Below are positions 30 to 14,997 of a stretch of 64,000 nt of DNA, piece after piece. Location: the NCBI GenBank assembly GCA_051251855.1, contig JBPOGI010000003.1:512001-576000 (forward strand). The letters run 5' to 3'. Below the pieces are notes generated by a model that saw nothing but the letters and a program-made list of their open reading frames with translations, had not been told where the DNA came from and searched no databases. Numbering within the stretch: the first letter of the stretch is position 1; every line of letters begins with the position of its first letter. Position numbers and translations under genes: made by a program. The DNA comes from Roseibacillus sp. GTDB taxonomy: Bacteria; Verrucomicrobiota; Verrucomicrobiia; Verrucomicrobiales; Akkermansiaceae.

Positions 30-38
30 GCGGGATTA

Positions 39-253
39 TTTGAACAGGAGGTAAGGAGGACGAGGCTGGGTGTACGGACTAGTGTGATTTTCAACGCAGA
101 GTCGCAGAGGACGCGGAGTGAACGCGGAGGACGGACTGATGTGTTTTTTTGAGATTTGAACCACCGCTCTGCGGGGCACGGCAGAAGGCAACAAAGGAAG
201 CGAAGTCGGGGTTGGATGTTTATTTTTGAACAGAAGGTGAAGAGAGAAAGGAA
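39..253 (+). repeat. Cluster of four purine-rich repeat units, each headed by TTT(G/C)AAC
   Basis: Heads at 39, 89, 155 and 225, each followed by AG-rich reiterations (AGGAGGTAAGGAGG; GCAGAGTCGCAGAGG; CAGAAGGCAACAAAGG; AGAAGGTGAAGAGAG). Confidence 0.6.
77..158 (+). repeat. ~80-bp dispersed repeat, copy A (CGCAGAG family)
   Basis: GACTAGT..TTCAACGCAGAGTCGCAGAGGACGCGGAGTGAACGCGGAGGACGGACTGATGTGTTTTTTTGAG; near-identical to 5310-5389 and shares its core with 13573 and 14053. Confidence 0.9.
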
Positions 254-275
254 CTTCGATTCGTAGCTTTGGTTT

Positions 276-5309: not shown

Positions 5310-5389
5310 GACTAGTATGGGTTCACCGCAGAGTCGCAGAGGTCGCAGAGTGAACACAGAGGACGGACCGGTGTGTTTTTTGAGTTTTG
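5310..5389 (+). repeat. ~80-bp dispersed repeat, copy B (CGCAGAG family)
   Basis: GACTAGTATGGGTTCACCGCAGAGTCGCAGAGGTCGCAGAGTGAACACAGAGGACGGACCGGTGTGTTTTTTGAG; direct repeat of 77-158. Confidence 0.9.
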
Positions 5390-11054: not shown

Positions 11055-13562
11055 CTAGCCAAAGAGGTCCATCTGGGGATTGTTGGCTTGGGGGAGGTTG
11101 TCGTGGGTGTCGCGGGTGTTTTTGGCCTTGGGGTTGGTGGGCTTGTTTGATTTTTCGGGCTTTTGGGAGTTGAGCTCGAGGTGGCTGAGGATTTCGGTGG
11201 CGCGGGCGATGATGGGTTGAGGGAGGCCGGCGAGGCGGGCGACTTGGATACCGTAGCTTTTGTCGGCGGGGCCGGGTTGGATTTTGCGGAGGAAGATGAT
11301 GTCTTCGTTCCACTCGCGGACGGCGACGTTGTGGTTCTCGACCGCTTCTTTGCTGGCGGCGAGGTCACAGAGCTCGTGGTAGTGGGTGGCGAAGAGGGTG
11401 CGCGATTGGGTGCTGTCGTGCAGGTGTTCGGCGACGGCCCAGGCGATGGAGAGTCCGTCGAAGGTGGCGGTGCCGCGGCCGATTTCGTCGAGGATGACGA
11501 GGGAGTCGGCGGTGGCGTTGTTGACGATGAGGGCGGTCTCGTTCATCTCGACCATGAAGGTGGACTGTCCCTGCGAGAGGTCGTCGGAGGCGCCGACGCG
11601 GCAGAAGATTTTGTCGACGAGGCCGATGGTGGCTTTTTCGGCGGGGACGTAGGCTCCGATTTGGGCCATGAGGGTGACGAGGGCGACTTGGCGGATGTAG
11701 GTGGACTTTCCGGCCATGTTGGGGCCGGTGAGGATGTGGAGACGGCCGGTCTCGGGGTCCATGGAGGTGTCGTTGGGAACGAATTTTTCTTCGATGAGAG
11801 TTTGTTCGAGGACGGGGTGGCGCGCGTTGGTGAGGTGGAGGCTGCGGTCGGTGGTGAGGTGGGGGCGGGTGTGTTGGTGGAGTTGCGCAGTCTCGGCAAA
11901 GGAAAGGAGGACGTCGAGGGTGGCGAGGGCGTCGGCGGTTTGCTGCAGAGGGGCGAGGTGCTCGCAGACTTGTTTGCGCAGGTGGACGAAGAGGTCGTAT
12001 TCGAGGGCTTTGGCGCGCTCGTCGGAGCCGAGGATCTTCTGCTCCATCTCCTTGAGGGCGGGGGTGATGTAGCGCTCGGCGTTGGCCATGGTTTGCTTGC
12101 GCTGGTAGTCCTCGGGGACTTTGTCGACTTTGCCTTTCGAGACTTCGAGAAAGTAGCCGAAGACATTGTTGAACTTGATTTTGAGGTTGTCGATGCCGGT
12201 GCGTCTACGTTCGGTTTCTTGCAGTTCGGCGAGCCAGTTCTTTCCTTCGCGGGAGGCGGAGCGAAGTTCGTCGAGCTCGGCGGAGTAGCCGTCGCGAATG
12301 AGGTTTCCGTCTTTGGGTGAGGCCGGTGGTTCGTCTCCGAGGGCGTTGGCGAGGAGTTCGGTGAGTTCGGGGAACTCTTGGATTTGGGTTTTGAGATGGG
12401 AAATTTGAGAGGTGTCTTTTCCTAAGGCCTCGAGGTCTTCGCGAAGAGCTGGGACGCGTTCGAGGGAGGTGGCGAGGGTTTTGAGATCGCGGGGGTTGCC
12501 GCTGCCTTGGGAGAGACGGCCGGTGGTGCGCTCGATGTCGCGAATGTCTTTGAGGGATTCGCGGAGCTTGGAGAGGAGGTAGGGTTCGGCGAGCAGTTGT
12601 TCGACGGTGTCGAGTCTGTCGTTGAGGGTGTCGAGGTCGCGCAGGGGATGGAGGACCCAGTCACGGAGCTTGCGCGCGCCCATGGGGGTGGCGGTGCGGT
12701 CGAGGGTGGCGAGAAGGGTGTGCTGGGTGCCGGAGCGGGATTGCACGAGGTCGAGATTGAGCTGGGAGGCGGTGTCGATGAGGACGTGCTCGCTGTGGTC
12801 GCGCACGGCGAGGGTGGAGAGGTGTTCGCAGTTGCGGCGGAGTTGGTGGACGAGGTAGTGGAGGGCGGCTCCACCGGCGCAGATCGCGGAGGCCATGTCT
12901 GCGCACCCAAAGCCTTTGAGGGACTGCACCTTGAAGTGGTCGAGGAGGGTGTGTTGAGCGGTCTCGTTGAGGAATGCGTAGGCGTCGTAGGGGAAGGAGC
13001 CAGGGAGTTGACCGAGTTGTTGCAGCTGGTCGTCGGGGATGAGGAGTTCGGAGGGAGCGAGGCGGTTGATTTCGTCGCGGAGGAGGTCGAGGTCGGTGAA
13101 TTCGGCGAGGGAGAATTCGCCGGTGGAGTGGTCGGCGCAGGCGAGTCCGTAGCGGAGTTTTTTTCCGGAACCAAATTGGCAGGCGGCGGCGAGGTAGTTG
13201 TGCTTGGTGTCGTCGAGGAGGGTGAGGTCGTCGATGGTGGAGGCTGAGATGATCTGCGCGATTTCGCGTTCGACGAGTTGGCCGGGTTTGGGTTCGGAAG
13301 TTTGTTCGGCTAGGGCGACGCGTTTGCCGGCTTTGACGAGCTTGGCGATGTACCCGGTGGCGGCGTGATGGGGGACTCCGGCCATGGGGATGTCGTGGCG
13401 CTTGGTGAGGGAGATGTTGAGGATGGGTGCGGCGATTTTAGCGTCCTCGAAGAACATTTCGTAAAAGTCACCCAAGCGATACAGGAGTAGGATGTCGTCC
13501 GGGAGGGAGCGACGGATGGCTTGGTACTGGGCCATCATTGGGGTGAGTTTTTTTTCGGGCAT
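11055..13562 (-). CDS. mutS: DNA mismatch repair protein MutS
   Basis: TPMMAQY, GDFYEMF, Walker A TGPNMAGKST, DEIGRGT, FATHYHEL, SYGIQVARLAG, beta-clamp-like QMDLF C-terminus. Confidence 0.99.
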   Translation of the reverse strand: MPEKKLTPMMAQYQAIRRSLPDDILLLYRLGDFYEMFFEDAKIAAPILNISLTKRHDIPMAGVPHHAATGYIAKLVKAGKRVALAEQTSEPKPGQLVEREIAQIISASTIDDLTLLDDTKHNYLAAACQFGSGKKLRYGLACADHSTGEFSLAEFTDLDLLRDEINRLAPSELLIPDDQLQQLGQLPGSFPYDAYAFLNETAQHTLLDHFKVQSLKGFGCADMASAICAGGAALHYLVHQLRRNCEHLSTLAVRDHSEHVLIDTASQLNLDLVQSRSGTQHTLLATLDRTATPMGARKLRDWVLHPLRDLDTLNDRLDTVEQLLAEPYLLSKLRESLKDIRDIERTTGRLSQGSGNPRDLKTLATSLERVPALREDLEALGKDTSQISHLKTQIQEFPELTELLANALGDEPPASPKDGNLIRDGYSAELDELRSASREGKNWLAELQETERRRTGIDNLKIKFNNVFGYFLEVSKGKVDKVPEDYQRKQTMANAERYITPALKEMEQKILGSDERAKALEYDLFVHLRKQVCEHLAPLQQTADALATLDVLLSFAETAQLHQHTRPHLTTDRSLHLTNARHPVLEQTLIEEKFVPNDTSMDPETGRLHILTGPNMAGKSTYIRQVALVTLMAQIGAYVPAEKATIGLVDKIFCRVGASDDLSQGQSTFMVEMNETALIVNNATADSLVILDEIGRGTATFDGLSIAWAVAEHLHDSTQSRTLFATHYHELCDLAASKEAVENHNVAVREWNEDIIFLRKIQPGPADKSYGIQVARLAGLPQPIIARATEILSHLELNSQKPEKSNKPTNPKAKNTRDTHDNLPQANNPQMDLFG

Positions 13563-13572
13563 CTTAAGGTGG

Positions 13573-13615
13573 TTCGTTCAACGCAGAGTCGCAGAGAGCA
13601 CGGAGTTACGCAGAG
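13573..13615 (+). repeat. Left 43-bp inverted repeat flanking the GxxExxY gene
   Basis: TTCGTTCAACGCAGAGTCGCAGAGAGCACGGAGTTACGCAGAG; 39/43 match to the reverse complement of 14053-14095. Confidence 0.95.
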
Positions 13616-13662
13616 TTTTTTTTGAGTTTTTTGAGTCGGGTTTGGATGACTTTTTTGAGTGT

Positions 13663-14040
13663 TTACTCGGGGAGGTTGTTGGCGAGGCGGCGGATGCCGT
13701 CTTTGAGGAGAGGGACGTTAAAGTTAATGAGGAGTCCGAGTGGCTTTTTACTGAGCTTGAGATATGTGAGAATCTGGGCGGTGTGAATGGGGTCGATTTT
13801 TTCTACGGATTTAAGTTCGAGAATGATTTTGTCTTCCACGAGGAGGTCGATTCGATAGGCGTCTTTGACGATGAGGCCTTTGAATTGAATGGGGAGGATG
13901 ACTTGTCGCTCAACTTTTAGGCCTCGCTGTGTGAGTTCATGGAAAAGGCAAGCTTCGTAGGTTTGCTCCAAGAGTCCGGGCCCAAGTTCTCGGTGAACTT
14001 CGATTGCGGCTCCAATAATTATCTGACTCAATTCATTCAT
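13663..14040 (-). CDS. GxxExxY protein (PD-(D/E)XK nuclease superfamily)
   Basis: IIGAAIEVHRELGPGLLEQTYEACL, YRIDLLVE, ILELKS, AQILTYLKL, GLLINFN. Confidence 0.95.
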   Translation of the reverse strand: MNELSQIIIGAAIEVHRELGPGLLEQTYEACLFHELTQRGLKVERQVILPIQFKGLIVKDAYRIDLLVEDKIILELKSVEKIDPIHTAQILTYLKLSKKPLGLLINFNVPLLKDGIRRLANNLPE

Positions 14041-14052
14041 ATCTCAAACAAT

Positions 14053-14095
14053 CTCTGCGAAACTCTGTAATCTCTGCGACTCTGCGTTGAACGAA
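14053..14095 (-). repeat. Right 43-bp inverted repeat flanking the GxxExxY gene
   Basis: Minus strand reads TTCGTTCAACGCAGAGTCGCAGAGATTACAGAGTTTCGCAGAG, ending 12 nt before the ATG. Confidence 0.95.
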
Positions 14096-14100
14096 TTACA

Positions 14101-14997
14101 TTAATACTCCCGATCGAGGAGATGATGGGCGATTTGGTTGAGATGGGTGGCGGCTTGGCCGAATGATTCTAGGGCGGCGAGGGAGAGGTCGGTGAGGCGT
14201 TTGGCTTCGGCTTTGGATTGTTCGAGTCCGAGGATGGCGGGGTAGGTGGATTTGTTGACCGCTTCGTCTTTGCCAGCGGTTTTGCCGAGGGTGGCGGTGT
14301 CGGCGGTGACGTCGAGGATGTCGTCGATGACTTGGAAGGCGAGGCCGAGGTTGTAGCCAAAAGTTGTGAGTGCGCTGAGTTGTTCGGTGCTGGCGTTGGC
14401 GGTCATGGCGCCGAGGCGGATGGAGGTGGTGAGGAGGGCTGCGGTTTTGCGCTCGTGGATGGCGATGAGTTCGTCGTGGCTGAGCAGGGTGTCTTCGCCT
14501 TCGCCTTCGAGGTCGAGGATTTGGCCGCCGATGAGTTGCTTGGATCCGGCGCAGACGGCGAATTCGGTGAGGTAGGATCCGACAGGGAAGCGTTCGGCAG
14601 GTGGGGTGTGGGCGATGAAGTGGAATGCTTCCGCTTGGAGGGCGTCACCAGCGAGGACGGCGATGGCTTCTCCAAAGACCTTATGGGATGTGGGGCGCCC
14701 TCGGCGGAGGTCGTCATCGTCCATGGCTGGGAGATCGTCGTGGACGAGAGAATAGGTGTGAAGAAGTTCGGTGGCGCAGGCTGGGAAAAGAGCGCTGGTT
14801 TCGTCGCCGCCACAGGCTTCGGCGGAGGCGAGGGTGAGGATGGGGCGGAGTCGTTTACCGCCTGCGAAGACGGAGTAGCGCATGGCCTCGTGGATTTTGG
14901 CGGGCTTTTCGAGGTCTGAGGGGAGGTGGGTGTCGAGGTGGGCGTCGATGAGGTCGCGTTTTTGGGCGAGATAGCTTTTGAGGTCTTCGCTTGGCAT
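14101..14997 (-). CDS. ispA: Polyprenyl (farnesyl/geranylgeranyl) diphosphate synthase
   Basis: GGKRLRP, HTYSLVHDDLPAMDDDDLRRG, GLAFQVIDDILD, GKTAGKD. Confidence 0.95.
   Translation of the reverse strand: MPSEDLKSYLAQKRDLIDAHLDTHLPSDLEKPAKIHEAMRYSVFAGGKRLRPILTLASAEACGGDETSALFPACATELLHTYSLVHDDLPAMDDDDLRRGRPTSHKVFGEAIAVLAGDALQAEAFHFIAHTPPAERFPVGSYLTEFAVCAGSKQLIGGQILDLEGEGEDTLLSHDELIAIHERKTAALLTTSIRLGAMTANASTEQLSALTTFGYNLGLAFQVIDDILDVTADTATLGKTAGKDEAVNKSTYPAILGLEQSKAEAKRLTDLSLAALESFGQAATHLNQIAHHLLDREY

Follow-up and report, generated by a model that had tools for sequence, protein, structure and literature searches.

Free-standing homing endonuclease genes are stand-alone nuclease genes that reside between conserved genes and pass through gain, decay, loss and re-invasion. 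In REP-RAYT systems, as outlined in passages of PMC2817692, the repeats are palindromes with a GT(A/G)G head, and in IS200/IS605 elements orientation is tied to replication, according to sections of PMC5027513 and PMC6006769. The intervening sequence (IVS) of 23S rRNA is described in part of PMC4990558 as being cut out of the rRNA by RNase III. The GxxExxY (PDDEXK_3) proteins constitute a very large family, entered with 'Unknown' function and multiple transfers in an excerpt of the listing of PMC3424549, and are mentioned once in passing in the text portion of 10.1101/2021.01.26.428298. Our literature search, outside which lay most subscription papers and supplements, returned no account of GxxExxY genes with terminal repeats. 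Here we describe a GxxExxY cassette from a 64,000-nucleotide stretch of Roseibacillus sp. DNA (the window), which is apparently an undescribed kind of slowly spreading selfish DNA.

The cassette at the ispA-mutS junction

A sequence-only reading of the window had placed a GxxExxY gene inside 43-nt inverted arms between ispA and mutS. This arrangement is borne out by the coordinates (Table 1), by an inverted-repeat identity of 39/43 between the arms, with four heptamer-type units in each, and by the profile scores of the encoded protein (157 bits on TIGR04256, cut-off 35; 153 bits on PF13366, cut-off 22). With a repeat finder, the inverted pair stretches to 68 nt at 82% identity. The unit of 523 bp fills the gap from the ispA stop, 5 nt beyond the outer end of its arm, to the mutS start, 10 nt beyond the other arm. 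The mutS-side arm has its purine strand on the plus strand, which is the G-rich strand of its own replichore. The gene is also AT-richer than its neighbours, as had been claimed, with a GC content of 48% compared to 61% for ispA and 62% for mutS and a GC3 of 56% compared to 73% and 80%, respectively. Equally upheld is the claim that a transposase and a clear target duplication are lacking: the unit contains no DDE-type transposase gene and matches PF13366 and TIGR04256 only, and a family-wide duplication signal is absent from 61 cassettes, whose longest shared word outside the arms is 4.5 for own pairs vs 4.3 for cross pairs, a comparison in which old insertions may have lost a duplication. 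The TTAA flanking both sides of the window cassette was considered as a target duplication and rejected, for it is missing at the cassette of the congener G002 and has no family-wide signal. An Rfam scan of the cassette gave two chance-level rows and no family near its gathering score. Among 20 sequencing runs listed there was no RNA run, and contigs of four DNA sequencing runs gave neither a joint across the cassette nor a fragment spanning the whole stretch. A promoter scan returned two sites vs 0.4 expected; one of them, a 10-of-12 sigma-70-like site at 14018-14047 on the minus strand, overlaps the GxxExxY start codon and would be aimed into the gene and onwards to mutS.

Table 1. Features of the window, in window coordinates.
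Feature	Position	Strand	Description
mutS-side (downstream) arm	13573..13615	+	T-rich outer end and four C-R-C-R-G-A-G units
ispA-side (upstream) arm	14053..14095	-	inner end 12 nt before the GxxExxY ATG
GxxExxY / PDDEXK_3 gene	13663..14040	-	125 aa; E25, D65, E75, K77, Q89, Y93 present
ispA (farnesyl diphosphate synthase), upstream host gene	14101..14997	-	stop 14101-14103
mutS, downstream host gene	11055..13562	-	start 13560-13562
Gene-free 246-nt spacer	30..275	+	single CGCAGAG arm 93-129 among same-facing arm-like modules of other unit types
Gene-free single arm	5320..5361	+	inner tail common to several single arms of the genome that contains the window (G000)

The family set comprised 241 loci from genome, metagenome, viral and family searches (best-scoring matches only), of which 220 were kept, with 16 dropped for short flanks, four as partial and one as duplicate, and 198 remained after dereplication at 80%. 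The window protein is, in the predicted model (pLDDT 95), of the PD-(D/E)XK fold, and its fold matches are restriction-endonuclease-like. Its six residues given in Table 1 are retained in 189-196 of the 198 relatives, among them the catalytic residues D65 (196/198), E75 (189/198) and K77 (195/198), and its QxxxY motif is one that we take to mark DNA nucleases. The best Foldseek rows are Cas4 (E 0.002; none at E <= 0.001) and the VIA Z is at most 8.5 with many ties, so that at scores this low no closest structure can be named and, among the families listed, none stands out. A sequence search of the PDB gave nothing below E 0.57, the ESM Atlas returned GxxExxY clusters only, and PADLOC found no defence-system profile beyond weak Cas4 rows (E 0.005 or worse). 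Of 23 close pairs, 17 gave an estimable dN/dS ratio, which lay between 0.03 and 0.12, and the other six were saturated at dS; four-fold sites differ at 413/771 in the cassettes vs 638/1601 in the flanks (17 pairs). Judged by these substitution patterns, the cassettes are long resident under purifying selection.

Distribution, residence and decay of the cassettes

Inverted arms, defined by a flank alignment score of at least 36, are found in 149 of the 198 relatives compared to 6% of cross pairs and 0/198 shuffles, and the cassettes recur across phyla. They have a median length of about 500 nt with no second gene in the unit and are co-oriented with the operon, with median distances of 11 nt to the stop and 21 nt to the ATG (63/75 scored), which are uncorrelated (rho 0.13). 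The arm units share a frame R-C-N-R-A-(G/T) and a T-rich outer end. Arm class requires 17 changes on a 129-row protein tree vs 41-48 in the five shuffles printed, which indicates clustering and not causation because kin share labels. A GxxExxY gene is carried by 119 of 201 host-family genomes and was not found in the other 82; at least five arms occur in 61/119 of the former vs 1/82 of the latter, counted with a genome-wide pattern that represents the main arm class only, in an association not independent of kinship. No match was obtained with a stricter pattern written for a second class of arms. The linkage between repeats and GxxExxY genes for which the sequence-only reading had called is seen in the arms that flank most family members and, within the host family, in the gene's presence in almost every arm-rich genome. 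Arm units are expanded into long tandem runs, of at least 12 copies, in G074 (C1:1933144-1933268 and 3776061-3776214) and G125 (C7:176508-176628), and locus L329 (G221) shows a local duplication downstream of the gene, in which the downstream arm is repeated in tandem along with the final codons.

Arms placed directly ahead of a start codon might be operators repressing a toxic nuclease, and the gene might then be a passenger or addiction gene that rides on arms moved by another enzyme or defends its own retention. The missing target duplication would fit, as would other small genes, one with a different repeat family, found in G000 at the same junctions. We nevertheless consider such a passenger role improbable: arm class follows the protein tree, the operator function leaves the downstream arm and the two-arm register unexplained, the unit contains no second gene, and no defence-system profile rises above the weak Cas4 matches.

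The ispA-mutS junction is variable within the genus. ispA is present in seven of eight congeners and mutS is adjacent to it in five, in all of which the junction is either empty (four) or differently filled (one). The gene-free spacers measure about 46-79 nt in G006, G007 and G008 and 146 nt in G001. The G002 spacer of 478 nt contains another GxxExxY gene, of 55% amino acid identity, between arms of a different unit. The window and G002 cassettes are rejected as one clade in the AU test (p-AU 0.0014), a two-row test weakened because the G002 protein is long-branched and odd in composition; the 123-row protein tree is a quick-search tree. ispA and mutS lie on different contigs in G004. Of the 147 mutS matches, the best 30 include 23 loci from outside the genus, and at none of these was adjacency of the two genes seen. 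At locus L130 of G005 (C104:53937-65806), the two are separated by 11.9 kb of other DNA that ends in a different repeat type ahead of mutS. The empty site sought at this junction thus exists, as gene-free alleles in four congeners, and the lack of empty alleles that would have spoken against the sequence-only reading does not hold.

A junction survey of 125 host-family loci (a top-scoring part of 313 matches, plus the G000 loci) left 120 usable, with junction gene names apart from ispA-mutS read from translations. Ten recurring junctions with both flanks shared hold 88 of the 120 cassettes, and 32 are singletons. At one junction, with the halves of a split methionine synthase on either side, there are 30 cassettes; their proteins fall into six clusters, and a single clade is rejected (p-AU 4e-5). 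Nearest relatives of at least 70% identity occupy the same site in 56 of 63 cases and other sites in seven, movement of the cassette therefore being rare; GxxExxY proteins 82-91% identical do occur at unrelated sites. When swapped pairs are compared, identity persists almost to the upstream stop, into the final codons, and is back at the downstream ATG, the downstream flanks being 84-94% identical, which implies that the whole spacer is the exchanged unit.

Conserved operon junctions could be exchangeable slots, integron-like without an integrase, in which a trans-acting GxxExxY nuclease would cut mirrored arrays folded on one strand at the replication fork and host repair would swap the contents. 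The cargo would include GxxExxY genes of various arm types, four-helix-bundle genes and other small genes, and the swaps would also add single arms in a fixed replichore direction. We regard this as a distinctly possible but minority reading; if true, it would mean gene mobility driven by a purely hydrolytic nuclease. At G000 C9:134623-134943, a PF05635 four-helix-bundle gene flanked left and right by short-unit repeats of its own fills a junction at which G020 has a GxxExxY cassette. Other small genes, presumably encoding a nucleotidyltransferase-like protein and a small membrane protein (read from translation), are found at G000 C1 ~108.3-109.2 kb and 14.8-15.3 kb, at junctions that have GxxExxY cassettes in relatives.

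Congeners provide a decay series consisting of a frameshifted gene, an internal deletion sparing both arms, and spacers in which nothing but the first 8-14 bases of the upstream arm is left. Because arm remnants persist, several or many of the empty alleles are losses and not ancestral targets, and because cassettes decay in place, gene-free hairpins need not have transposed. Two cassette-free junctions of G000 (C6 ~371.68 kb and 286.1 kb) retain a short upstream-arm remnant of the congeners' cassettes. No recent insertion was found paired with a near-identical empty allele, and the neighbour pair of the relocated cassette L275 recurs in 0/16 matching congeners, with no precise empty site. As read from these comparisons, the pattern is one of invasion, long residence, decay, re-invasion of the same gaps and rare relocation; the cassette is not a fast-hopping IS and appears mostly inherited in place. 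The notion of a REP/RAYT-like autonomous element with non-autonomous copies therefore stands as an analogy, in view of the empty alleles, the flanking arms and the co-occurrence of genes with arms, and is only partial, because the unit stays at its sites for long periods and decay in place can give rise to arms without a gene.

Strong purifying selection with saturated synonymous sites and mostly vertical residence would also be expected of a domesticated system as argued for REPIN-RAYT, in which the gene is retained for a benefit to the host, such as the processing of hairpins or of stalled forks at the arms, and movement is confined to arms without a gene. The roughly tenfold excess of arms over genes in G000 (32 vs 3) is in keeping with this, as is the near-absence of GxxExxY from mobile collections (0 phage records, 8 plasmid records and 2 viral contigs). 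Against it stand the 82/201 family genomes in which the gene was not found and the frameshifted and deleted copies in congeners. Furthermore, a gain-loss cycle accounts better than a fixed host function for the 1-9 divergent copies per genome, 38-60% identical within the same genome, and for one junction having been refilled repeatedly. Domestication consequently appears to us an unlikely account.

Single arms, arm pairing and strand preference

G000 has three GxxExxY genes with inverted arms around each. A genome-wide repeat count, as suggested along with the sequence-only reading, gave 32 matches of the three-unit arm pattern vs 0 for the reversed control, and 27 of the 32 arms are unpaired. 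The gene-free arm copies reported near 90 and 5322 are present, as unit clusters at 95-129 and 5327-5361, but they are single arms and not hairpin doublets (partner scores of 16 and 20 vs 70 for the cassette). At the G005 counterpart of the spacer at 30..275, the flanking genes overlap at ATGA with no spacer, and the single arm at window position 93 is, by this comparison of alleles, a clear gain without a gene. The arm at 5320..5361 is likewise missing at its G005 counterpart, where the right-hand neighbour differs too.

All 27 unpaired arms of G000 have the purine strand on the replichore's G-rich strand. According to gene calls from a custom script, 21 of them lie before starts and six after stops, with the same polarity either way. 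The closed genome G109 is similar (16/18 unpaired arms follow the G-rich strand), and in G074 concordance is 10/21 in a hand count covering 20 of about 30 candidate regions. Single heptamers of G000 and the reversed control are themselves skewed (~60-64%); when this background is cubed, p is still 0.002. The GC skew of G000 is unusually strong (~0.2), with the switch from G-rich to C-rich located 35 kb from dnaA. The tRNAs (36 vs 14) and rplB favour the G-rich strand, and 56% of the called genes are on the C-rich strand. A motif search of G000 for the origin revealed no parS-like match and no clear DnaA-box cluster.

Within a cassette, one arm stays in strict register with the other. Both linker lengths are equal between own arms in 65/65 parsed cassettes, compared to agreement in 58% of cross pairs per linker and in 68% with the nearest relative, and at free positions an arm resembles its partner more closely than it does its counterpart in the nearest relative. 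The register therefore points to pairing, or else to one arm having been copied from the other. Regarding mirror copying of host coding bases, identity was 0.37 vs 0.28 among 39 related rows, several of which have mis-assigned stops. Pairing of the start codon with the gene's own coding sequence was considered and discarded (96/174, p 0.2; not conserved).

Were the pairing to occur in RNA, the unit would be an IVS-like element whose arms are retained because their pairing in the operon mRNA sets the gene out as a loop and places the upstream stop next to the downstream start; cleavage of the arms, whether by RNase III or by the encoded protein, would tune downstream expression. The sequence-only reading had offered such a stem, and it is indeed predicted to form, with arm-arm pairing of ~0.92 per base in the ispA-mutS transcript. 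The strict register, the co-oriented and gap-filling placement of the cassettes, the four-helix-bundle (23S IVS family) gene at a junction where a relative has a GxxExxY cassette, and tRNA splicing endonucleases among the weak fold matches are all compatible with it. The mismatches argue the other way. About one arm position in six is mismatched. Wobble-type mismatches number 262 on the antisense strand vs 180 on the mRNA strand, the majority by cassette being antisense in 69 and mRNA in 40, with 40 ties, and the duplex is stronger on the antisense strand in 86 vs 59 cassettes when computed as RNA and in 80 vs 62 (p 0.05) when computed as DNA. The arm sequences thus appear to favour pairing on the template strand and not in mRNA; the bias is modest, and A-richness near the start codon could contribute to it. 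In addition, single arms orient by replichore and not by transcription, whichever way the neighbouring gene runs, and the QxxxY motif and the best fold matches are those of DNA nucleases. Taken together, folding and cleavage of the arms at the RNA level seem to us rather doubtful as the basis of the element. The tuning of mutS in particular that had been suggested is not supported, as nothing ties the cassette to mutS and the family sits at many unrelated junctions.

Proposed mechanism and relation to known systems

On balance, and with moderate confidence, we favour the view that the GxxExxY protein is a DNA endonuclease acting on its own unit array in folded single-stranded DNA at the replication fork, and that host repair does the copying. 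The 523-bp unit would accordingly be a selfish cassette, composed of a gene for a stand-alone RecB/Cas4-like endonuclease placed between mirrored arrays of its recognition units. The protein would bind the heptamer units, the two arms would fold onto each other in single-stranded DNA, probably at the fork, and the enzyme would cut near the T-rich arm base. We know of no strand-transfer step in hydrolytic PD-(D/E)XK enzymes, hence integration must be borrowed from the host: recombination repair would copy the cassette into a stop-to-start gap, best where an arm or scar is present. The same junctions might be re-used because gaps already holding an arm or scar take cassettes most readily. One-sided events would leave single arms in fixed replichore orientation, and the stop-to-start position, together with arms folding away in the mRNA, would make the cassette nearly harmless to its host.

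Since the arms change with the protein lineage, they offer a putative cognate DNA site through which the function of the GxxExxY family can be tested directly. If the cassette is self-spreading, it would represent a class of mobile element that uses no transposase, no recombinase and no reverse transcriptase, and the REP-RAYT way of life would have arisen a second time from an enzyme of unrelated chemistry. A common class of unannotated repeats, and the recurring small genes wedged in housekeeping operons, would likewise be accounted for. Pairs of arm and protein with different specificity could yield compact sequence- or structure-specific nucleases.

Among described elements, classical IS and MITEs differ from the cassette, which has neither a DDE-type transposase nor a target-site duplication signal. 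With IS200/IS605, as portrayed in sections of PMC5027513 and PMC6006769, it shares structured ends and the lack of a target duplication; their orientation is tied to replication, and single arms here follow the replichore in 27/27, 16/18 and 10/21 cases in three genomes, with polarity seen in two of them. In contrast to IS200/IS605 it has no HUH transposase, both of its ends are the same inverted array, and its same-genome copies are not clonal. The 23S rRNA IVS with an S23p / four-helix-bundle ORF, to the extent covered by the portion of PMC4990558, is comparable in having about 0.45-0.5 kb with one ORF in a terminal stem, and its PF05635 family shares a junction with GxxExxY cassettes; the present unit differs in lying between protein genes (ispA, mutS) and in having as its ORF a conserved nuclease under purifying selection. 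Cas4 and RecB-like nucleases resemble the protein in fold and in the E..D..ExK..QxxxY residue set, and they provide the best Foldseek rows, whereas the Fe-S cysteines and a CRISPR or helicase context are absent here. Free-standing homing endonuclease genes exhibit the same residence and the same gain-decay-loss-re-invasion pattern. They are set apart by the terminal repeat arrays and dispersed gene-free arms of the cassette, and by one junction holding unrelated lineages and one lineage holding several junctions: same-site proteins are rejected as a clade at two junctions, though sites cluster on the tree.

The closest likeness in behaviour is to REP/REPIN-RAYT, as far as it is laid out in passages of PMC2817692 and PMC3116915. 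Common to both are a single small nuclease gene with an inverted repeat on each side, co-variation of the repeats with the protein (here the 149 flanked relatives of 198 and the 17 vs 41-48 changes), many gene-free copies of gene-dependent abundance (here 61/119 vs 1/82), divergence faster than that of neighbouring genes, and singlets plus doublets. The differences, set against the same passages, lie in the enzyme, a PD-(D/E)XK protein and not an HUH Y1 (IS200/IS605-related tyrosine) transposase; in the arms, tandem heptamer arrays with a T-rich outer end and no GT(A/G)G-headed palindrome; and in the cassettes, which fill stop-to-start gaps and replace one another, with single arms dominating in G000. 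The unit is best read as a selfish cassette of nuclease gene and arms that would act on DNA, similar to REP-RAYT in behaviour without belonging to that group.
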